A stretch of 11,273 nucleotides of DNA, taken from positions 1-11,273 of the IMG/VR virus record IMGVR_UViG_3300045988_083849; one strand, given 5' to 3'. Shown one piece after another: positions 1 to 11,273 of the stretch; position 1 is the first letter of the stretch, and every line of letters begins with the position of its first letter. The notes beneath the pieces are model-generated. The model saw only the letters and a list, made by a program, of their open reading frames with translations, did not search any database and was not told the DNA's origin. Origin of the DNA: a virus. The position numbers were made by a program, and so were the translations under genes.

Positions 1-14
1 ATGCACAACTCCCC

Positions 15-46
15 CATTTTTAACATTTCCCAACACATTTTTAACA
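15..46 (+). repeat. Two phased direct repeats CATTTTTAACA inside the left ITR (15-25 and 36-46)
   Basis: Identical 11-mers whose starts are 21 nt apart, about two helical turns. Mirrored in the right ITR. Confidence 0.85.
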
Positions 47-59
47 GTCGCCAACATAG

Positions 60-80
60 TTTGGCACGCTTTTTGCATAG
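60..80 (+). promoter_or_regulatory. Sigma-54-type -24/-12 box (TTTGGCACGCTtTTTGCATAG), left ITR copy, pointing inward (rightward)
   Basis: Core at 62-77 is TGGCACG-cttt-TTGCA, an exact match to TGGCACG-N4-TTGCW. GG (63-64) and GC (75-76) are 12 nt apart. Confidence 0.55.
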
Positions 81-103
81 GCCGCGCCAAACCTCCACGA
101 AGA

Positions 104-143
104 AACAAAAAAAATAGCGTACCAAAATAGTTTGGCACGCTAT
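104..143 (-). terminator. Intrinsic terminator after the last (tail) gene
   Basis: On the minus strand, 12 nt after the TAG stop (156-158): AUAGCGUGCC (143-134), a 10-nt loop, then GGUACGCUAU (123-114). This is a 10-bp stem with one G:U pair, followed by U7 (plus-strand A-run 107-113). Confidence 0.75.
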
Positions 144-151
144 TTGCATAG
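131..151 (+). promoter_or_regulatory. Second sigma-54-type box (TTTGGCACGCTaTTTGCATAG), left subterminal, outside the perfect ITR
   Basis: Core at 133-148 is TGGCACG-ctat-TTGCA. It is the same 21-mer as the ITR copy except for one spacer base. It overlaps the 5-prime arm of the minus-strand terminator hairpin (134-143). Confidence 0.5.
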
Positions 152-155
152 GCCT

Positions 156-1979
156 CTAATCTATAAATACACCGCTTTGCAATAAATTAACAATTTCGGT
201 GTACTCGCTTTTCGGCACGTTGTCTATATCATTATTTACAATCTCATCAAATTTGTAAAAACCTTTTGCACATTGCGAAAGTACAACCTTTTTGTAGTCA
301 TTGCCGCGTCCACCGCTGTACTCATTTGTAAAGTAATTCAGCCGCACAAACGGCTCAAGTCCATACAAATTTTGTGCGTCCCACCTGTCACTACCTATTA
401 CGCTTGTGTCGTAAGTCGTGTAAAGTACATCCGTATTAGGTTGTACGTTATGCAATTGTATAGGTAAATCGTTATTATCCAATAATTTACAAACCCCGTC
501 ACCGCTAATTACATTTATATCGTACACCAATTTTACAGATTTACCGACATAATCAGAAGACAAACTAACAATACCCACGAACGGCAAAAATACCTCGATT
601 ATCATATTTTTGTCAAGTGTGGTATTATCTTTGCGCGGTATTGTGATACTACCGAAGTCAAGCGTTATTATATCCTTTTCGGGTAACTCTGCGTTTATTT
701 CTGTGTCGTAGTTGCCGCATTTTATTCGGTCCGTGCCTTTAGTAGGTATGTTCGTATAAATACGCTTAATGCGGTTAATATATTCGCTCAAATCTTGCTC
801 GTAAGTTATAAAAGTGCCGCTTTCTGTGAAGTACCGTTTTTTACTAAAAGCGTCAAGGTTATCCAACGTAACTACATACACATTTATAGACCCATAGTTT
901 TTAATGGTCGGTGTTACCTCAACTTGCGCCCCTCCACGAAATTCGATGTACTCAGTTTTGGGGCATTCGGTTGCGATGTCAAGTGTAACACTACCTTGCT
1001 TTTTATCCTCGCTAATAGTGAAACGTTTGTATTGTACACCTCCAAAATCGTCCGTGTATCTTATTTCGGGGGGGTCGGTCTCGCTTGTAAACTTGCTACC
1101 CTCATTTGCTTGTATTGTAACGTTTACTTTGTCGGTCGGGGTGTAATATGTGGGTATATTTTCGGCATTACAATTATATAGGGTATTTTTAACGGGTATG
1201 GCCTTAATATAAGTACCATTAATAACCACGGACACAGAAGTATCTACATTTGTTATTGCTATGGTTGCGGTGTCGCTGCTTTGTATGGTCATATCCTCGG
1301 TATGTGAGACACCGCTTGTATCTGTGTAGGTAACGTTGGCCGCTCGTATAACATAGTCGCTGTTTGTACCTTTTAGTGTTATGTTGAAAGTGCCATTATC
1401 GTAGATATATGTAGCGTTTGTGCCGTCTATGTTATTTGTTATTGTAATCGTTGGCGTACTCTCGGCAACCTCCCCGTTAAGTGTAAAAGCACTATTTTTT
1501 GCAGCGTCATCTATGGTAAAAGTAGCCTTGCTTTTGTCAGTGCTTACTACCCCGTTAGCGGTCGAAGTACCGCCAAAGCTATCAGTGTACACACAAGTAG
1601 GCGCAACATTGAATTGATACCCCGTATCAGCGGTAACTACAATGGTATGTACGCCACCGCTCGCTCTATACGTATAGGTAGTGTTTACTATATTGTTTGT
1701 TATCGTTGGTTCTGCGGGGGCGTCGGGGTCTACCTTAGTTGCACCCGTTAAACGTATATTTGTACCGCTAACACCGCTAAAGTTACACGTTTTTAGGTCT
1801 GTAGATACTTTGCCCTTAATACTGCCCCCTCCAAAATCATCATCAAAACGGGCGCGAGGTGTAGTTGCGGTATCAAACAAAAAACCCGTGTCAGCGGTGC
1901 TTATGATATTATACGCACCCACACTCTCAGTATATGTAAATGTAGTGTGCGGTATTTGGTTTGTTATTATATCTGCCAT
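156..1979 (-). CDS. Distal tail / receptor-binding protein. N-terminal four tandem ~85-aa Ig-like repeats, C-terminal ~250 aa resembling the C-terminal part of the phi29 gp9 tail knob
   Basis: 607-aa ORF and the last gene of the structural block. Internal repeats each begin with (TP)TI(T/K)N and each carry a YTDxFGG-like motif (aa ~45, ~130, ~217, ~307). The C-terminal end GFYKFDEIVNNDIDNVPKSEYTEIVNLLQSGVFI resembles, from memory, the gp9 C-terminus ([34 protein letters not shown]). Confidence 0.6.
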   Translation of the reverse strand: MADIITNQIPHTTFTYTESVGAYNIISTADTGFLFDTATTPRARFDDDFGGGSIKGKVSTDLKTCNFSGVSGTNIRLTGATKVDPDAPAEPTITNNIVNTTYTYRASGGVHTIVVTADTGYQFNVAPTCVYTDSFGGTSTANGVVSTDKSKATFTIDDAAKNSAFTLNGEVAESTPTITITNNIDGTNATYIYDNGTFNITLKGTNSDYVIRAANVTYTDTSGVSHTEDMTIQSSDTATIAITNVDTSVSVVINGTYIKAIPVKNTLYNCNAENIPTYYTPTDKVNVTIQANEGSKFTSETDPPEIRYTDDFGGVQYKRFTISEDKKQGSVTLDIATECPKTEYIEFRGGAQVEVTPTIKNYGSINVYVVTLDNLDAFSKKRYFTESGTFITYEQDLSEYINRIKRIYTNIPTKGTDRIKCGNYDTEINAELPEKDIITLDFGSITIPRKDNTTLDKNMIIEVFLPFVGIVSLSSDYVGKSVKLVYDINVISGDGVCKLLDNNDLPIQLHNVQPNTDVLYTTYDTSVIGSDRWDAQNLYGLEPFVRLNYFTNEYSGGRGNDYKKVVLSQCAKGFYKFDEIVNNDIDNVPKSEYTEIVNLLQSGVFID

Positions 1980-2481: not shown

Positions 2482-3651
2482 TTAAGCAACAAAGAAAACT
2501 ACAAAGTTTTCGTTAGTATCATTGTAGTAGCCTGCATCAAACTTGTAGTAATTGTTGAAGAACTCGGCTTTTGCATTATAGTTAGTAGTTACGCGTCGGT
2601 TGAGGTTACAAACGCCTAACGCGTCCCTATCAAACATAACACCTAATACGCCGCTAATATCAACTGGTTTTCCTCCCGTCTCCTTGATTGTTATGTGTGC
2701 TGTGCTTGCAAAGTCGTACTTAGTACCGCTACCCTGCCAAAATGGGACACTTTCCGCGTTAGGTAAAAGTACCTGCTCTTTGTTGTACGTATCGCTGTAC
2801 AAGTAAGCACGCGCGGCCTTTTCAAAGTCTGACAACAATACAACGTGCAAGTTTTCGCGCGGTGTAAAGCGTGGCTTACCTCCAATGTTGAATACGTTTG
2901 AAATGCTTGCAAGTCTATCAGTGTACAAACCAATCGTGTAACTTGCAAACTTGATAAAATCGGGGTCTGTCAGTGCCTTTGCAGCGGTCAAAGTAGTACC
3001 TTTGTTATCGTTGTACAACTTTAGCAAGTTAACGCAACGCGCTGTACTTGCACTTGTGTAGTCGGGTGATTCACCACCAAAGGCCGATTTATCAGCTATT
3101 AAAGTTTGCGCTATCATGTTATTGATAGTACGCATTATTAACGCGTCCGTCTTAATGGTTATAGACTTTTCGACCGCGTTGTATATCATCGACAAAAATG
3201 CGTTTAGTTGCTCAGAGCTGCTGAATGACTCTTTAACTTGTCGCTCGGTTATAGAAACGGGTACCTCGAAAGTTACCTTAGAATTAAAGAACTTTGCCGT
3301 AACTTGCGGCTTGTGGAATACATCTTGCGAGTAGTCAGTACCGTCCGTTAGCTCCCAACTTTTATTCTCTTCGGCTTCTGGTAAGTCCGCGCTAATCTTT
3401 TCCAGGACGCTTCCGAACTCCCACGCGTCCATAAGTACAGACGGAATTTTACCTGCGTAGGGGCGATTGACAAAAACCACTTTGCCAATGTGGTTAACAA
3501 GTGATTTTACGTAATTGTCCACTGCATTTTGGTTAAAGACTTCGTTTCCGAGGTCGACCAACCCAGTTAAATCCTCTTTAACAAGTTCCGATTTTCCCAA
3601 AACCTCTTGTGATACGGAATTTATCAGATTGTAAATTTGTTTTACTTGCAT
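2482..3651 (-). CDS. Major capsid protein (HK97-fold, phi29 gp8-like core without the Ig-like C-terminal domain)
   Basis: 389-aa ORF in the position expected for the MCP and followed by a strong terminator. Segments YVKSLVNHIGKVVFV, LNAFLSMIYNAVEKS and the C-terminal FFNNYYKFDAGYY...VVFFVA resemble phi29 gp8 blocks from memory (FITSLVDRIGLVVI, FESFVSSIINAIYNSAE, YWNYYYHVWQ...AVAFV). Confidence 0.8.
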   Translation of the reverse strand: MQVKQIYNLINSVSQEVLGKSELVKEDLTGLVDLGNEVFNQNAVDNYVKSLVNHIGKVVFVNRPYAGKIPSVLMDAWEFGSVLEKISADLPEAEENKSWELTDGTDYSQDVFHKPQVTAKFFNSKVTFEVPVSITERQVKESFSSSEQLNAFLSMIYNAVEKSITIKTDALIMRTINNMIAQTLIADKSAFGGESPDYTSASTARCVNLLKLYNDNKGTTLTAAKALTDPDFIKFASYTIGLYTDRLASISNVFNIGGKPRFTPRENLHVVLLSDFEKAARAYLYSDTYNKEQVLLPNAESVPFWQGSGTKYDFASTAHITIKETGGKPVDISGVLGVMFDRDALGVCNLNRRVTTNYNAKAEFFNNYYKFDAGYYNDTNENFVVFFVA

Positions 3652-3652
3652 A

Positions 3653-4222
3653 TCAATAAATTAATTTAGTTATATCATTTATAATTGCAAAAATAATGCT
3701 TTTGCGCCAATTTTGCAAATTAAATTCAATTTCTTTTTTTAACTCGTCCGTTACTGATTTATTACCCAATCCTACAACCTTTTGTGTACTCGTCACGTTA
3801 TTAGTACGTGTATTGTCGTATGTGGTACTATCTTTGTCATACTCCACAAAATCAGTTGCGTTGTATGGTTTGTTAGACGCTACATTTGTATTGTTATTGT
3901 TGGCGTTTTCCGTGATATTGTCTTCGCGCGTTGTCTGCTGCTGTACTGGGTTAAGTACATCATATTGCGCATTGTAGGCACTCGCCACGCGTACCCAATT
4001 GTTAACACTCAACGCAATGATATTTTTTATATACTCGTTTGCGTTTGCTTGTGTTATGGTGTTTACGACCTCGCGCTCGCTGTAGTTGAGTAGTACCAAC
4101 GTATCAAGTCCCACGCTATCCATTTCGCCAAATATTGCATTGTATTCCGTGGGGAAATTATCCTTGAACACCTCCGTAAATAGGCCGTGTTTAGGGTCGG
4201 GGTATAGGTCAATTATTTTCAT
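3653..4222 (-). CDS. Structural protein of unknown role (candidate lower collar/adaptor or scaffold)
   Basis: 189 aa counted from the first ATG (4220-4222). This start overlaps the portal stop by 14 nt, and the stop lies 1 nt before the MCP ATG. It has helical-looking N- and C-terminal parts flanking an N/T/Q-rich central segment. The longer track ORF (to 4378) starts at GTG inside the portal repeat and is not favoured. Confidence 0.6.
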   Translation of the reverse strand: MKIIDLYPDPKHGLFTEVFKDNFPTEYNAIFGEMDSVGLDTLVLLNYSEREVVNTITQANANEYIKNIIALSVNNWVRVASAYNAQYDVLNPVQQQTTREDNITENANNNNTNVASNKPYNATDFVEYDKDSTTYDNTRTNNVTSTQKVVGLGNKSVTDELKKEIEFNLQNWRKSIIFAIINDITKLIY

Positions 4223-5186
4223 TTTCTTCTTCCTTTTCTTCGTCCGTTTCGGTTTCGGTTTCCGTTTCGTTGTCCGTTTCGGTGTCCGTTTCGGTGTCCG
4301 TTTCGGTGTCCGTTTCGGTTTCTGTTTCGGTTTTATTTTCTTCTTTGCGAATGGCCCAACTGCTTGCAAGTTCAACACTTATGTTTGTGCCAAACATAGC
4401 GTTTATCTTTTCTACTGCCTTTTTGCGCTCTTGTAGCATATTATCAACGTAGGGGTTTAGGGCGTCCACATTCATTTGCACTTCGGACGTGTTCAACCGC
4501 TCGCGCTTTAGGTTGTAGTTGGCATTCAACCCAATTTCGTTAAAGGCCGACGCCTTGAAGTATTGTAATAACTCAATGAGTTGCGTTATTTGGTTGGCGC
4601 TCTGCGTGGATATACTTTGCAAGTTGACGCCCTTAAAAAATGCGTTTTCACCAATTACGGAAAAATCGCCCTGCAAAATCTTTGTTATGAAATCGTCAGC
4701 GCTTTGTTTGGTCTTGTCATCGCTCGCACTTATTAACATAGTAATGCGAGAGAGTACCGAACATGTATTTAAAGACAAAAGCGTGTCACTACACAACACA
4801 CCATATTTGCCAAAGATTGGCAAAAGGCTATTTGCTCCACTATCGTTTTTAATTAGTACGCCCTCAACGCCTATTTTGTACGACTTGTTTAGTTGCAAAT
4901 ATGGGTTACTTACAATGTATTCTGTCGCCTCATTGTACGCGTTGGGAGTACCTCCAAAGCCGCCAGTAAAAGCGTACATTTTGCCGTCTACCTCAGTTAC
5001 AAAAACATTTCCGTTTGTCTGCAAAAGGTTTTCGAGATTGCTTTGTGGTAATGTTTCGGGCAAACCTTTATACACAAACATTGCCTGCGTTATAGCCAAC
5101 ATTTTTTTAATGTAGCCATTTACGCTTTTATCTTTGTTTTTTATTTGCTCTTGATACTTTATGTATAAGTTATCCTTCTTTGCCAT
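4209..5186 (-). CDS. Portal / head-tail connector (phi29 gp10-like) with a long acidic C-terminal tail
   Basis: 325 aa. MLAITQAMFVYKGLPETLPQSNLENLL, EIGLNANYNLKRERLNTSEVQ and RKKAVEKINAMFGTNISVEL parallel, from memory, phi29 gp10 blocks ([67 protein letters not shown]). Confidence 0.9.
   Translation of the reverse strand: MAKKDNLYIKYQEQIKNKDKSVNGYIKKMLAITQAMFVYKGLPETLPQSNLENLLQTNGNVFVTEVDGKMYAFTGGFGGTPNAYNEATEYIVSNPYLQLNKSYKIGVEGVLIKNDSGANSLLPIFGKYGVLCSDTLLSLNTCSVLSRITMLISASDDKTKQSADDFITKILQGDFSVIGENAFFKGVNLQSISTQSANQITQLIELLQYFKASAFNEIGLNANYNLKRERLNTSEVQMNVDALNPYVDNMLQERKKAVEKINAMFGTNISVELASSWAIRKEENKTETETETDTETDTETDTETDNETETETETDEEKEEENENN
4242..4333. repeat. Coding tandem repeat (hexamer-periodic; unit GTCCGTTTCGGT, four perfect tandem copies at 4272-4319 plus one at 4242-4253)
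   Basis: Read directly. In the portal frame (minus strand) it encodes TETETETDTETDTETDTETDNETETETETD. Confidence 0.95.
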
Positions 5187-5410: not shown

Positions 5411-6541
5411 TTATTTTATACTTACAATGTTAGTTTTTGCAGAAGTCATTAAATAATTTCGTACAATTTCGCCAACCTCATTATTTTGGTAAAATACTTT
5501 GTCAGTGGCAAAGTACCGCGCAACTTGACTCTCTAAGTACGTTGCACTACTTATTAACTTGCGCTTGTAGTTTGGTTTTCCGTTCATTTGTAGGCTGTAT
5601 ATTAGTGAGTTTTCGGGGTCTTTTATAGGGGTTGTCTTTGCGTGTATGTATGTAAAGTTTTCGTTTCCGTGCTGAATTATGTTGCCTTGCAAAATGTAAT
5701 CGTTAAAAACAATGTAATACACAAATAGCACGTCATTTGGTTTGTACTTCGTTGGCAAATGTGGATAGGCCGCCATTTCCCATTTGCCCCCTGTTATCAT
5801 TTCAAGATTTTGGTTATCAAAGCAAAAATACTTATTACTTGCTTTTTGTTTAACAATGTTACTGCAATACTCCACCGCTACTACTGCTCCATGCTGCCCA
5901 AACTTGTATATGTCAATCGTGCCTTGCTCCATGTTAGTTACTTGCTTCAAGCCCATCTCCGTAAAGTAGGGGCAAAACTTGTTTATTGTGTTACCAAGCA
6001 TAAATACTTTAACGTTGTCGCGCTGTCTTATTATGGTGCTTAACAAGTTCATATACAACATAAACTCATCAGGTAGGTAATACCTACGAGTTAAAAACTC
6101 ATCAAAAACTATTGTTGTAACATTGGGGTAACTGCTACTTTTTTCGTGCTCTTGCTCTGACAGACAAAAGCCATAGCAAAAAGGTGTAGTTTGTGGTACG
6201 TACTTCTTCTTTTCTGGGTCGTACTTTGCAAGATACCATTTGCCGCCTATATAAAAAACAGAGTTAAACTCTCCCTTTGTTATCTCTTCTATATAGCCAT
6301 TGGCTACATGGTTAGCAAACAGATTTTCAGCGCGTTTGCCGCGTAAATCCTCGCGCCAACGTCTTATATATGCCATTTGCTCGCCTGTTTGTATGTAACG
6401 TTTAATACCATACGCCAAAGTAGCGTATGTTTTGCCGTTTGAGCGTTCGCCAAATATTATGTTATAATCTGCCTTTTTGTTTAGGATATTGGCGAGGGAG
6501 TAAAATTTTATCGTTTCTTTTTTCGTGGTTTCTTTCTTCAT
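5411..6541 (-). CDS. DNA packaging (encapsidation) ATPase, phi29 gp16 family
   Basis: Walker A is GERSNGKT and Walker B is TTIVFDEF. SSSYPNVTTIVFDEF closely matches remembered phi29 gp16 YPNVSTIVFDEF. The start is set at the ATG at 6539-6541 (MKKETTKKE...), because the track's upstream ATG (6583) lies inside a 16-bp palindrome. Confidence 0.92.
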   Translation of the reverse strand: MKKETTKKETIKFYSLANILNKKADYNIIFGERSNGKTYATLAYGIKRYIQTGEQMAYIRRWREDLRGKRAENLFANHVANGYIEEITKGEFNSVFYIGGKWYLAKYDPEKKKYVPQTTPFCYGFCLSEQEHEKSSSYPNVTTIVFDEFLTRRYYLPDEFMLYMNLLSTIIRQRDNVKVFMLGNTINKFCPYFTEMGLKQVTNMEQGTIDIYKFGQHGAVVAVEYCSNIVKQKASNKYFCFDNQNLEMITGGKWEMAAYPHLPTKYKPNDVLFVYYIVFNDYILQGNIIQHGNENFTYIHAKTTPIKDPENSLIYSLQMNGKPNYKRKLISSATYLESQVARYFATDKVFYQNNEVGEIVRNYLMTSAKTNIVSIK

Positions 6542-6566
6542 TGTTTTAATTTTTAATTGTTTGAAT

Positions 6567-6582
6567 TGTTCCACGTGGAACA
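6567..6582. promoter_or_regulatory. Perfect 16-bp palindrome TGTTCCACGTGGAACA (candidate operator) between the polymerase and ATPase genes
   Basis: Read directly. It lies between the polymerase stop (6586-6588) and the ATPase ATG (6541). It is related to the two sites at 10225-10265. Confidence 0.6.
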
Positions 6583-6585
6583 TTT

Positions 6586-8772
6586 TTAATCTTTTAGTTT
6601 TATACCCTTTAGGTAATTAAGGTACATTACACTCAAAGATAGGTTGTAACTTGTTGGCTCTAAATGTACACCCGTGTTTTCGGCAAATGTACACTTTTTA
6701 CCTTGATAGTCGGTAACTTCACCCGTTATTTTGTAGTCTATGTACGTATGTATGTTTTTGCCCGTTGCTTCGCACGGAAACTCAAGATAATTCGTAAATG
6801 CGTTAAATATGTTGTCACCATACTTTTTACATAGGTATGGTATTGCAGCCTTTTTGTTTACACCGCTAATTGTCAAACTATATTCATAACTTTTGCCTCC
6901 TACGTTTAGCGCGTTTTCTTCTTGTATCATATAGCGCTTTGCTCCCAACGTCTTAAAACGTTTATATGTACCTTCGTAGTCCCAAACGCCTAATGTTTTA
7001 GTAACTCCCTTAATGGTTTCGGGTTCGCATTTGGCAAAGTCGATGTTATGATGTTTACACGCGGCATTTAATTTGTTATACACTACATTGTTATACATAT
7101 CAAAATACCTTTTGTGTGCTGCTGCGTTACGGAGTTTAATGCTGTCAGTATCGCTATAAATGTAATCTTGCTTTGCTTCGTAGATTGCAGTAAATAAATT
7201 GCGCCTTGCGTAGGCAGTCACAAAAACACCCCACGGGTAAAACAAAAAGCGGTTTTTGCTTTCGTTGTACTTTTGTAGCATTTCGGATTTTTCGCTGTCT
7301 GTAAATGTGTTTTCGTCCCATTGTCCATTGTACACAAATTCATCGCGCAAAGGGTTAGTAACACACATACCATAGCAAGAATTTAACATCTCTTTGCTAT
7401 TTAGATACTCCACTTCATTACCTCGCACGCCTTTTAATTTGGTTTTGTTTTCGTACAAATCCAAGATTGTACGTACAAATTCAGTTGGTAAATAGTCGGC
7501 CTTATAGCAATACATTGCACCGATACGGACACCGCCCCACGTGTAAAAGTTGCGTATTATGTTGTAGTCTATGTTAGTTATTGTAGTGGCTATCTTTGCA
7601 GCACAAACTAAACGTCCATTGTTTTCAACGTGGTTAACCTTGACAAAGCATTTGCTTACACTTATAGGGTTGTCCTGCAACTCTTTTGCAAAAATGTTTG
7701 TAAATTCCACGTCAAAGATACAAAGGTACTTACTTGTGTAGTATTTAAATTCTTTAATATCTCGAGGCTGTACCCTTACACCTTTCGACATCGGGAATTT
7801 TTCCGACACCATAACATAAGGGTAACTACTTGTAAAATCGTAACTTGCTACATCTTCACAAATTTCGTCTATATGGTTAGCGTTACCATGAGTATAGCCG
7901 CCACTAAACGCCCTTTGTAACATATTAAATTCATCCAATCCGTTGATAGTTAGTGAATGGATTAAATTTATACACTGCCAATTACGCGAGGTTTTGCCGT
8001 TTACCTTTTTACTTAACATCGCTTTGCGGCAATGTTTACGGACGTACCCCGTTTTTGTTAGGGGCAATCTTGTTATTAACTTGTTTTGCTCTAATTGCTC
8101 TTGTATGTAATTCATCACGATTTTTATATCATTTACGCAATAAAGCAACTCTTTCGGTGTTAACTCTGTTTGTGTATGTCGTATTTTGGTATAGTCCAAA
8201 TCTCCAACCATTTTTGCACACTTGTACGTTTGTAGTTGCTCGCCTAACTTTGCAAGGTTGTAGCCACTTAGTAAGTAACTACAACGGAACTCAATGCCTA
8301 TTGTTGTAGTTGCGTATAAGGGTTTGCGTAGGTCAATGCTGAAAACCTTTTCCCATTCAAATAAAGTACGAAGAAATTGAAATTCATAAGATAGATTGTG
8401 TATGTACACAATTAGTTTTTTTTTAGTGGATAACTCCAACGTTTTTGCTATCGTGTTACACATAGTTGTAAACTCGTCCCATGTTCTGCCTACTATTACG
8501 TACCCATTTATACCAAACTGCCACACGTACATAATAGCACATTTTTCCATTTTTACGCCTAATTTGGTGTACTGCTCGTATGTGTATGTGTTGCCGTCTT
8601 CGTATCTATAAAAGCTACTTACTTCAATATCAAAGGCACAAGGGACGTTGTAAAATTTACACCCCTTATTGTTGCCTATTACGTTTTTGTCATTTACGGC
8701 CAACTGCAAAATATCTTTTATGTCGGTTGCCTTATATATACCGCTGTGCTGTTCATATTGCACTTTTTTCAT
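6586..8772 (-). CDS. Protein-primed family-B DNA polymerase
   Basis: 728 aa. Exo I is CAFDIEVSS, Exo II is HNLSYEFQF and Exo III is YCVNDIKIV. Motif A is YDFTSSYPYVM, motif B is KEMLNSCYGM, motif C is YIYSDTDSIK and the KxY motif is GAKRYM. The genome has ITRs and the upstream gene overlaps by ATGA. Confidence 0.96.
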   Translation of the reverse strand: MKKVQYEQHSGIYKATDIKDILQLAVNDKNVIGNNKGCKFYNVPCAFDIEVSSFYRYEDGNTYTYEQYTKLGVKMEKCAIMYVWQFGINGYVIVGRTWDEFTTMCNTIAKTLELSTKKKLIVYIHNLSYEFQFLRTLFEWEKVFSIDLRKPLYATTTIGIEFRCSYLLSGYNLAKLGEQLQTYKCAKMVGDLDYTKIRHTQTELTPKELLYCVNDIKIVMNYIQEQLEQNKLITRLPLTKTGYVRKHCRKAMLSKKVNGKTSRNWQCINLIHSLTINGLDEFNMLQRAFSGGYTHGNANHIDEICEDVASYDFTSSYPYVMVSEKFPMSKGVRVQPRDIKEFKYYTSKYLCIFDVEFTNIFAKELQDNPISVSKCFVKVNHVENNGRLVCAAKIATTITNIDYNIIRNFYTWGGVRIGAMYCYKADYLPTEFVRTILDLYENKTKLKGVRGNEVEYLNSKEMLNSCYGMCVTNPLRDEFVYNGQWDENTFTDSEKSEMLQKYNESKNRFLFYPWGVFVTAYARRNLFTAIYEAKQDYIYSDTDSIKLRNAAAHKRYFDMYNNVVYNKLNAACKHHNIDFAKCEPETIKGVTKTLGVWDYEGTYKRFKTLGAKRYMIQEENALNVGGKSYEYSLTISGVNKKAAIPYLCKKYGDNIFNAFTNYLEFPCEATGKNIHTYIDYKITGEVTDYQGKKCTFAENTGVHLEPTSYNLSLSVMYLNYLKGIKLKD

Positions 8773-9407
8773 AATCCGAAGTTATTAAATTCTTCTAATA
8801 TGCTATTTATTTCACTTTCTACTTCGTTCGTTAGTTTGTTGGCTTCGCTCTCGATATTGCTATCTATGGCGTTTTGTAGGCTTACCGCTTCACTCTCAAT
8901 TTGTTCGCTCGCGTCCCTTGCGCTTTGCTCCAAATCTCCAGTAAAATCTTTATACTTCATTAGGTACTTTTCCACAAAATCGCTATCGCTTAAACTTGTT
9001 ATCTTTTCGTTTAATTTGTCTGCCATTAAATTAAATTCTTTATCTGTAAGGCCGTAGGCGGTTTTTAGATGTTCGTTGTACGCTCTTGTGCCTTGAGCTG
9101 TACTCGTAGGCTGACGCAAAAAAGATACTGCCTTTGCGTACTCTATTTTTATCTCGTCCCAACTTTGGTCTCTAACAGAAAATTTGCTAAAGACTTTAAT
9201 ATCTCCTTTGTTTAAGGCAGTTACCGCGGGGCTTAATAAACCTTTGTCTTCAATGTTTTGTATTCTTCGGTTGGCCTGTTGAAATACGCGTCTTACTTCC
9301 TTTCTTAATTCGGGGCTACTTTCAACGCTTTGTATAATATCTTGTCGTAACTCGGCGCGTTGCGTTGCCGTAAATACGCTTTGTTTGTATCCTATCTTGT
9401 TAGGCAT
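8769..9407 (-). CDS. Candidate terminal protein (replication primer)
   Basis: 212 aa. It sits immediately upstream of the polymerase and is translationally coupled to it (ATGA overlap), as gene 3 and gene 2 are arranged in phi29. The N-terminus is basic and the C-terminal third is acidic, Ser-rich and helical. There is a weak remembered resemblance around SFLRQPTSTAQGTRAYNEHLKTAYG (phi29 TP SFTNRANMRYQFEKNAYG). Confidence 0.5.
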   Translation of the reverse strand: MPNKIGYKQSVFTATQRAELRQDIIQSVESSPELRKEVRRVFQQANRRIQNIEDKGLLSPAVTALNKGDIKVFSKFSVRDQSWDEIKIEYAKAVSFLRQPTSTAQGTRAYNEHLKTAYGLTDKEFNLMADKLNEKITSLSDSDFVEKYLMKYKDFTGDLEQSARDASEQIESEAVSLQNAIDSNIESEANKLTNEVESEINSILEEFNNFGL

Positions 9408-9452
9408 AACTATAAAATTAAAATAGGTAGGTAGTTATATGCTACCTACCTA
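9408..9452 (-). terminator. Intrinsic terminator or attenuator between the early ORFs and the replication genes
   Basis: Minus strand: UAGGUAGGUAG (9452-9442), loop CAUAUAA, CUACCUACCUA (9434-9424). This is a perfect 11-bp stem followed by UUUUUAAUUUUAUAGUU, which runs straight into the ATG at 9407. Confidence 0.65.
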
Positions 9453-9465
9453 ATTGTGTTACTTG

Positions 9466-9819
9466 TTAGATGTCTTTAAAAATAATAGTGTGACAGTCGC
9501 GGCCGTGGCTCTCGTACTTTCGCACTACAAAACCAACTTTTCCGTTTTTGATGTCATTTACCGCGTCCGTGTTATTTACAACGTCATTAAATACCTTGGT
9601 TAGGTATGTAGGAATATCCACGCGCTTTTTAACGTCTGACATCACCACAACTACTTTTACGCCAAACTTACCGCGCGTAAAATAAAAGCCGTCTAACGCG
9701 TGTACCTTATTAGGGTCGGCGTTGTATAACTCTTTAAGGCTCGTAAAGTCGTAGCCTTTAAGGTCAAACTTAAAAGGGTTTTCATTTCCCTTATTGTACT
9801 TTTCTGCAAAACTTGTCAT
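9466..9819 (-). CDS. Early protein of unknown function (positional candidate for an ssDNA-binding protein)
   Basis: 117-aa ORF with an ATG start, upstream of the TP-polymerase pair where phi29 encodes its SSB. I recognise no diagnostic motif. Confidence 0.6.
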   Translation of the reverse strand: MTSFAEKYNKGNENPFKFDLKGYDFTSLKELYNADPNKVHALDGFYFTRGKFGVKVVVVMSDVKKRVDIPTYLTKVFNDVVNNTDAVNDIKNGKVGFVVRKYESHGRDCHTIIFKDI

Positions 9820-10224: not shown

Positions 10225-10265
10225 TGTTCCACGTTAAACAATTTGTATTTTGTTTCACGTGAAAC
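10225..10265. promoter_or_regulatory. Pair of CACGT-centred operator-like sites: TGTTCCACGTTAAACA (10225-10240) and the perfect palindrome GTTTCACGTGAAAC (10252-10265)
   Basis: Read directly. The site centres are 26 nt apart, and the sites lie 18-58 nt upstream of the ATG at 10207. They fit the same consensus (TGTTYCACGTGRAACA) as the 6567-6582 palindrome. Confidence 0.55.
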
Positions 10266-10894: not shown

Positions 10895-11023
10895 TTATTG
10901 TGGTGTATTTGTTATTCCATATTTCTTCAACGGCCTTAACTCTTTAGTTGTGAGATAAAGACCAACGAAACCGCGCCAATCGTTAAATTCACCTATGTTT
11001 TTTATTTTCTGAATGATTTCCAT
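10895..11023 (-). CDS. Possible first early ORF, not in the track (42 aa: MEIIQKIKNIGEFNDWRGFVGLYLTTKELRPLKKYGITNTPQ)
   Basis: Translated by hand. Its ATG lies 19 nt downstream of a TAnnTTTG box and it fills the only sizeable non-terminal gap. Being short, it is weakly supported. Confidence 0.35.
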   Translation of the reverse strand: MEIIQKIKNIGEFNDWRGFVGLYLTTKELRPLKKYGITNTPQ

Positions 11024-11042: not shown

Positions 11043-11074
11043 CAAAGGTAGTTACTTCGTGTACTATATGCAAA
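11043..11074 (-). promoter_or_regulatory. Bacteroidota-type promoter: -33 TTTG (11074-11071) and -7 TACCTTTG (11050-11043)
   Basis: The minus strand reads TTTG, then 20 nt, then TACCTTTGCAA, with the ATG (11023) 19 nt after the -7 box. The architecture matches the 5397-5404 box. Confidence 0.5.
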
Positions 11075-11120: not shown

Positions 11121-11141
11121 CTATGCAAAGAGCGTGCCAAA
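11121..11141 (-). promoter_or_regulatory. Second sigma-54-type box, right subterminal, outside the perfect ITR, pointing leftward
   Basis: The minus strand reads TTTGGCACGCTcTTTGCATAG. TGGCACG is the complement of 11133-11139 and TTGCA the complement of 11124-11128. Predicted start is near 11113. Confidence 0.55.
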
Positions 11142-11193
11142 TTGTTTTGCGGTGAAGTGTTTTTTTTTATTGGATTTGGAGGTTTGGCGCGGC

Positions 11194-11214
11194 CTATGCA
11201 AAAAGCGTGCCAAA
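11194..11214 (-). promoter_or_regulatory. Sigma-54-type -24/-12 box, right ITR copy, pointing leftward in the direction of all genes
   Basis: The minus strand reads TTTGGCACGCTtTTTGCATAG. TGGCACG is the complement of 11206-11212 and TTGCA the complement of 11197-11201. Predicted start is near 11186. Confidence 0.55.
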
Positions 11215-11227
11215 CTATGTTGGCGAC

Positions 11228-11259
11228 TGTTAAAAATGTGTTGGGAAATGTTAAAAATG
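11228..11259 (-). repeat. Mirror copies of the CATTTTTAACA direct repeats in the right ITR (11228-11238 and 11249-11259)
   Basis: The plus strand reads TGTTAAAAATG twice, 21 nt apart. These are part of the perfect ITR. Confidence 0.85.
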
Positions 11260-11273
11260 GGGGAGTTGTGCAT

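Follow-up and report, generated by a model that had tools for sequence, protein, structure and literature searches.

The left end of the linear phage genome analysed here carries two inward-facing copies of a promoter-type sequence at an end where the genes run the other way, which raises the question of why both copies are kept. The window, by which we mean the whole stretch of 11,273 bases, is a near-complete linear genome (11.3 kb) of a small phi29-like podovirus related to Astrithrvirus. Its long ORFs with a family match are all on the minus strand, in keeping with the initial annotation, and include the Phi29-type major capsid protein (2482-3651), the connector (4209-5186), a Gp16-type packaging ATPase (5411-6583) and a protein-priming family B DNA polymerase with a DNA_pol_B_2 match (6586-8772). 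The ORF at 1981-2421 has its homologue in the tail-knob ORF of Astrithrvirus, and that at 8769-9407, a candidate for the terminal protein, in the ORF upstream of the Astrithrvirus polymerase. The last gene of the long minus-strand operon (156-1979, minus strand, 607 aa) had been called a tail gene. That label holds as far as position goes, the gene coming after the tail-knob homologue, but no match was found for it in Pfam, PHROG or Astrithrvirus, and we call it a distal tail or receptor-binding protein on positional grounds only.

No close phage was found in GenBank at the DNA level. The nearest isolates are those of the Astrithrvirus group (Salmonella phages astrithr and Astrid, Acinetobacter phage Phanie and Pectobacterium phage DU_PP_III), which likewise have 11-12 kb phi29-like genomes with inverted terminal repeats (ITRs), the same gene order, a family B polymerase (PolB) 41-45% identical to that of the window, and homologues of both its tail-knob ORF and the ORF upstream of PolB. 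Two features of the coding region were noted in passing. A 12-nt unit, (GTTTCGGTGTCC)n, is repeated eight times in register at 4204-4347, in the overlap of ORFs 3653-4378 and 4209-5186; translated from the minus strand, it would give a short acidic/Thr-rich peptide repeat. A strong hairpin of 11-12 bp (TAGGTAGGTAGC...) at 9424-9452, followed by a T-run on the minus strand, stands between ORF 9466-9819 and the terminal-protein candidate and is likely an internal terminator or attenuator of the early region.

The initial annotation placed a 21-mer at 60-80, within the ITR, and at 131-151, outside its perfect part, both on the plus strand, and both were found there, the subterminal copy agreeing at 20 of 21 positions. 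The pattern TTTGGCACGCTNTTTGCATAG has four occurrences in the window, two per end and all pointing inward, against a chance expectation of 0. The full 21-mer, TTTGGCACGCTTTTTGCATAG, matches with zero mismatches inside the ITR at 60-80 (plus strand, left copy 1, with TGGCAC at 62-67 and TTGC at 73-76) and at 11194-11214 (minus strand, right copy 1). Each subterminal copy differs from it at position 12, by T to A at 131-151 (plus strand, left copy 2, beyond the perfect ITR) and by T to C, at a spacer position, at 11121-11141 (minus strand, right copy 2). No match was seen in any of 200 shuffles. The core TGGCAC-N5-TTGC is without mismatch in all four copies and has no other perfect match in the window, and its extended form, TGGCACG-N4-TTGCA, is also perfect in all four. 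The right copies lie upstream of and face a gene, right copy 1 pointing to the early genes. The left copies, from which transcription would start near 88-89 and 159, have no gene ahead of them and face the 3' end of the minus-strand tail gene, as had been described.

Two other descriptions of the box were tried and discarded. As a Bacteroidetes primary-sigma promoter it fails, its TTTG elements lying 11-12 nt apart, not 19-21, with no TAnnTTTG. A hairpin at copy 1 (60-91) formed by TTTGGCACG and its imperfect inverted partner CGCGCCAAA (83-91, plus strand) folds no better than shuffles (z about -1.3); the partner reads CGTGCCAAA in close relatives and is not kept family-wide.

Sigma-54 promoters have a -24/-12 consensus, TGGCACG-N4-TTGCA, and need an ATP-driven activator to fire; P-II genes are their classic targets. 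The boxes fit this consensus, and the proposal that they are of sigma-54 type was supported by a scan for the exact 21-mer in one genome each of 185,579 bacterial and archaeal species (596 Gb), which returned 14 matches; with 20 fixed bases and 2 x 596 Gb, about one was calculated to occur by chance. Each of the 14 lies between genes and points at the following sequence, and 12 have an ATG-started ORF 24-48 nt past the box; as for the other two, contig L136 stops right behind the box and no ORF lies near the L140 site. Downstream genes confirmed by Pfam were P-II in Fibrobacter MAGs and one alphaproteobacterial MAG, and a MacB-like permease, GrpE, Hsp20 and HtpG in Bacteroidales MAGs, the confirmed products coming mostly from Bacteroidales and Fibrobacter. 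Because the same 21-mer precedes P-II genes, the phage box is, judged base for base, a promoter sequence that bacteria use with sigma-54. It shares with bacterial promoters such as those of glnB/glnK (P-II) both the TGGCACG-N4-TTGCA sequence and the placing of GG and GC one helical turn apart. The phage boxes differ from them in forming arrays of 1-4 in the terminal repeats of a linear genome, in being separated from the first gene by 100-400 nt and a further promoter, in having T at -12 in the innermost copies and, in two copies of the window, in facing no gene. No enhancer site or activator for the phage boxes was identified. As a separate observation on the bacterial side, the 21-mer stands ahead of grpE, hsp20 and htpG in three Bacteroidales MAG contigs (L139, L143 and L144), which hints that chaperone genes may be under sigma-54 control in these Bacteroidales.

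The same box could instead be the site of a phage-encoded DNA-binding protein, with its likeness to sigma-54 promoters incidental. In line with this, TTTGGCACG recurs inverted beside copy 1 (83-91) and copy 2 (118-126), and conservation extends to spacer bases (TTT) that are not part of the sigma-54 consensus. However, agreement at 11 positions with one known consensus is very unlikely to arise by accident, the inverted partner is not conserved across the family, and a search of the phage ORFs for DNA-binding domains, sigma-54 or an activator (enhancer-binding ATPase) found none. We regard this explanation as highly improbable.

The perfect ITR is 97 nt long (1-97, plus strand; 11177-11273, minus strand), with mismatch beginning at position 98, and it contains two tandem 21-bp repeats, CATTTTTAACAnnnnCCAACA (15-56, plus strand), whose TTTAAC motif marks the ITR across the phage family. 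In relatives L006, L017, L027 and L048, sequencing (Illumina) adapters are joined directly to AAAT/AAAG termini; these ends read AAATATGC... or AAAGGTAC... and mark the physical DNA termini. Judging from them, the window is short of its first four bases (AAAT) at each end. Physical ends that start with AAA in the relatives fit sliding-back initiation, and the features of a protein-primed origin are present, namely a linear genome, the 97-nt ITR, a DNA_pol_B_2 polymerase and the AAA termini of the relatives. An Rfam search of the ends, including phi29 packaging RNA, matched no family, and the right-end leader between the boxes was unstructured in folding.

To place the window among its relatives, IMG/VR was scanned with the box, the polymerase and the ITR motif, yielding 125 distinct related genomes of 9-13 kb with polymerases 60-100% identical to that of the window. 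In 210 of 213 family ends the distance of copy 1 from the ITR repeat motif is the same, which puts it at nt 64-84 from the adapter-defined physical terminus. Over 116 distinct ends its conserved block, T-TGGCACG-S-TTTTTGC-W, covers exactly -26 to -11, and conservation falls off on either side. Within copy 1 the GG and G-13 are each present in 100% of sequences and C-12 in 88%. The -12 C is replaced by T in 11% of copy-1 sequences and in 46% of subterminal ones (C in 54%), and almost always in the innermost box, so that arrays read C, CT, CCT or CCCT. Ends hold one to four boxes in tandem, all inward, with box-to-box spacings that cluster at 48, 58 and 68-73 nt, and in relatives a TTTAACA lies 15-17 nt upstream of each box. 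ITR length ranges from 90 to 617 nt, mostly 200-400, and the repeat usually encloses all boxes; in L002 and L018 it extends past all boxes and the promoter into the 5' end of the first gene. ITRs are shortest in the window's subclade, and copy 1 is kept even in the shortest repeats, of 90-105 nt.

What follows the boxes inward is also shared across the family. In the window a Bacteroidetes-type primary-sigma promoter, TTTG-N20-TAccTTTG, lies at 11043-11074 (minus strand) upstream of the first early ORF (ATG at 11023), and such a promoter is kept in the relatives at one or both ends; its presence at the right end suggests that the host may belong to Bacteroidota. Close reading of the ends of L027, L048 and L036 (L028 being an exception) gave one order at both ends: terminus, TTTAAC repeats and boxes, primary-sigma promoter, inward genes. 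The boxes stand about 100-400 nt from the first ATG, with the separate promoter in between. In 78 of 105 left ends, one or more inward ORFs of at least 60 aa separate the innermost box from the first long minus-strand gene, so that boxes upstream of and facing a gene, if at an unusually long distance, are the rule at that end too. The Astrithrvirus isolates resemble most of this family in having inward genes at both ends, unlike the window's subclade, which has none at the tail end; no sigma-54 box was found in the ITRs of these isolates.

Two further sequence elements deserve mention here. The palindrome GTTYCACGTGRAAC occurs in the window at 6568-6581, at the polymerase/ATPase junction, where it overlaps the ATG of the packaging ATPase, and at 10252-10265 in an early intergenic region, with a degenerate copy at about 10227-10243. 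It is found twice per ITR in about half of the relatives, and 50 of the 125 genomes carry four copies at their ends but no internal one. Where the ends were read closely, its place is between the boxes and the early promoter (in two of L027, L048 and L036). The palindrome looks like an operator for some regulator, and the TTTAAC and GTTYCACGTGRAAC repeats are candidate activator-site repeats, with no link to an activator seen. The second element is a near-perfect internal sigma-54-like site (TTGGCACGAAATTTGCA or TCGGCACG...) at 1185 (plus strand) in L042 and at the homologous site in many genomes of the 65% clade, conserved on the antisense strand in many relatives. In the window there is only a sigma-54-like sequence with two mismatches, at 5726-5740, which may correspond to this internal site in position.

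The left end is where the window departs from the family pattern. A box 7-16 nt from the tail-gene stop codon is confined to the window's 8-genome subclade, and the left-arm genes of other clades have no homologue in the window. In the reading that we favour, with modest confidence, the boxes are host-type sigma-54 (RpoN) -24/-12 promoter sequences of which left copy 1 has been kept with the ITR, while left copy 2 is a leftover that now serves as a terminator arm. The family arrangement would be one to four inward tandem boxes inside the terminal repeats, ahead of a primary-sigma promoter and genes at most of the ends examined. In the window's subclade the left gene arm would have been lost and the ITR would have shrunk to about 97 nt. 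We take this to be the simplest reading because the ITRs here are the shortest, the left region 98-155 can still be aligned with its right-end counterpart, and relatives keep left-arm genes. The inner part of the formerly longer ITR would then have diverged in the window's lineage. Left copy 1 (60-80) would stay as part of a terminal repeat kept identical at both ends, and left copy 2 (131-151), a remnant of the longer repeat, would persist since 131-145 pairs with 112-126. The match to bacterial sigma-54 promoter sequences, the layout of the family's ends and the hairpin with its covariation are established by the comparison; binding of the boxes by sigma-54 RNA polymerase, their firing and the course of evolutionary events are proposed.

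On the subject of the left arm, most relatives have a 140-aa ORF there (L020 806-1231, L036 1036-1458 and L048 1319-1741, counting the tail-side end as position 1) that looks by eye like an M15-type peptidase and is a probable endolysin. The window has no homologue of it anywhere in the genome, nor a recognisable endolysin.

The pairing that would hold left copy 2 in place belongs to an intrinsic terminator of the minus-strand operon (107-145, minus strand). A 15-bp stem, 131-145 with 112-126, closes a 4-nt loop (127-130), begins 10 nt past the stop codon (156-158) of ORF 156-1979 and is completed on the minus strand by eight U, those of 107-111 plus three within the stem. In these respects it resembles other Rho-independent terminators; it differs from them in that one of its arms derives from a promoter-type box that would be older than the terminator. 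The minus strand folds with a dG of -23.8 kcal/mol (z -5.7) and the plus strand with only -16.2, because a G.U pair becomes an A.C mismatch there; the plus strand also has no U-run. The segment 134-143 had been described as a terminator arm, and it lies inside the real arm, 131-145, where covariation now backs that assignment. Across the 8 genomes 118 of 118 cells are paired and three pairs have changed on both sides, involving a box spacer base in L008, C to T in L004 and A to G in L006, a level of pairing reached by none of 500 shuffles and by no slid control. The L006 copy has drifted from the sigma-54 consensus to GGCGCG, and the stem is kept by the change in its partner. The six box bases outside the stem (146-151) show one change in the 8 genomes, indistinguishable from neutral or shared descent.

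The right end provides a natural comparison. Within the subclade, right subterminal copies have core mismatches in about five of 11 genomes while the left copies are intact. The right-end homologue of arm 112-126 does not pair, and right copy 2 forms no hairpin in the window (dG -2.3, z +0.7). Because the right copy drifts where there is no hairpin and the left one stays intact, the left subterminal copy is, as we read these sequences, conserved as a terminator arm, and arm 112-126 appears to have evolved to match the older promoter-type box. Other clades, L017 for example, have a different terminator for the late operon, apart from the box.

The same junction borders a gene exchange. L004 and L006 have an unrelated 739-aa gene instead of the window's distal tail gene (their left 2.4 kb compared with 156-2480), and the exchange is bounded by the left box/terminator on one side and, on the other, by a point close to the tail-knob gene. 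Module swapping of this kind is typical of receptor-binding proteins; here the conserved box forms one of the junctions.

If the left copies were active sigma-54 promoters, plus-strand RNA starting at about 88 and 159 could regulate the tail gene by convergent transcription. The GG-N10-GC core is intact in both copies, and the hairpin, with its A.C mismatch and missing U-run, would be no terminator for plus-strand RNA. Set against this, no conserved ORF or structure lies downstream on the plus strand, the arrangement is restricted to the 8-genome subclade, where it would have arisen by left-arm loss, and conservation of copy 2 is accounted for by the stem, as the near-neutral record of the six bases outside it and the drift of the L006 copy with its compensating partner both illustrate. 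We therefore consider regulation of the tail gene by these copies unlikely; antisense RNA from them, which would need a host enhancer-binding ATPase, would be incidental at best.

It had also been argued that conservation of the 21-mer at both ends favours a replication-origin or other end-specific role over a transcriptional one. That inference found no support in the wider comparison, and it is unnecessary because the family architecture and the hairpin together explain the left copies. Genes lie behind the boxes in 78 of 105 relatives, the ITRs are usually long enough (200-400 nt) to enclose all boxes, whose number varies from one to four, and the left subterminal copy of the subclade is held by its hairpin while the right one drifts. 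Relatives lacking a left subterminal copy had been named as evidence that would speak against the end-specific role; 42 of 105 left ends do lack one, which goes part of the way towards that refutation.

Some findings nevertheless count against the relic reading and keep the ends themselves in view, although they do not revive the argument from a subterminal copy conserved at both ends. With neither sigma-54 nor an enhancer-binding ATPase among the phage ORFs, any activation would have to come from the host. Between box and first ATG lie 100-400 nt, compared with 24-48 nt in the bacterial matches, the -12 C is often T and systematically so in the innermost box, and the fixed distance of copy 1 from the terminus, together with its retention in the shortest ITRs, fits a cis role as well. 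The boxes, copy 1 above all, might accordingly be an end-specific cis element that binds a protein for protein-primed replication, packaging or DNA entry, the protein being sigma-54 holoenzyme as a stable closed complex or another, with firing secondary or absent. The near-invariant offset of copy 1 and its survival at 90-105 nt would suit such an element, as would box spacings of 48, 58 and 68-73 nt, which rise in steps of about one helical turn, the TTTAACA upstream of each box, the distance from genes, whose evident promoter is a separate primary-sigma one, and the dispensability of the -12 C in many copies. However, the conserved block is exactly a sigma-54 footprint and bacteria use the 21-mer as a promoter; the isolated relatives (Astrithrvirus) have no box in their ITRs; copy number varies from one to four, with 42 of 105 ends having only one; ITR identity follows from the replication mode and requires no selection on each end; and the spacing classes may stem from two ancestral repeat units and not from phasing. 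On these grounds the element remains a doubtful alternative.

A further possibility, which we consider less likely than not, is that binding of sigma-54 RNA polymerase at the genome ends is the function itself in well over 100 small phi29-like phages, probably of Bacteroidales. It would act either as an activator-gated early or entry switch or as an auxiliary origin or nucleoprotein element, and the gene-less left copies would then be kept for an end-specific role and would not be relics. Parallels can be drawn with known systems. The adenovirus ITR has an auxiliary origin with NFI and Oct-1 sites, and phi29 forms a p6 nucleoprotein complex at its genome ends. The likeness would lie in a protein-primed genome with sites of a transcription type of factor some tens of bp from both termini; here, by contrast, the factor would be a bacterial sigma holoenzyme, and the related proteobacterial phages have no boxes. 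The promoters A1-A3 of T7, and A2b/A2c and C2 of phi29, are tandem, activator-free primary-sigma early promoters near the entering end. As there, several promoters of one direction lie by the genome end, inward and upstream of early genes, but sequences of the sigma-54 class require an ATPase activator, and the phage has a primary-sigma promoter in addition.

The boxes could also serve as a decoy, 2-8 high-affinity sites per genome titrating scarce host sigma-54 and so blunting a sigma-54-dependent host response. Their perfect consensus, arrayed and far from genes, would suit titration, for which no activator is needed, and the 21-mer precedes grpE, hsp20 and htpG in Bacteroidales MAGs. The idea is nonetheless purely inferential and gives no reason for the fixed terminus distance or the single orientation, and we think it very unlikely.

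A literature search on sigma-54 sites in phage genomes or terminal repeats, and on sigma-54 in Bacteroidetes, found nothing relevant, and arrays of sigma-54 boxes in phage terminal repeats appear to be undescribed. To our knowledge, phages are not known to build end-proximal control regions from sigma-54 promoters. The occurrence of these arrays in the terminal repeats of a large phage family is a more notable result than the relic at the left end of the window. With perfect boxes at a fixed place in the ITR, infection could be gated by a stress or nutrient signal of the host; alternatively, a host sigma holoenzyme could be put to a use at DNA ends other than ordinary transcription. The window itself offers a clean, small example of reuse, in which a stranded promoter box would have become a terminator arm and the other arm would have evolved to fit it.
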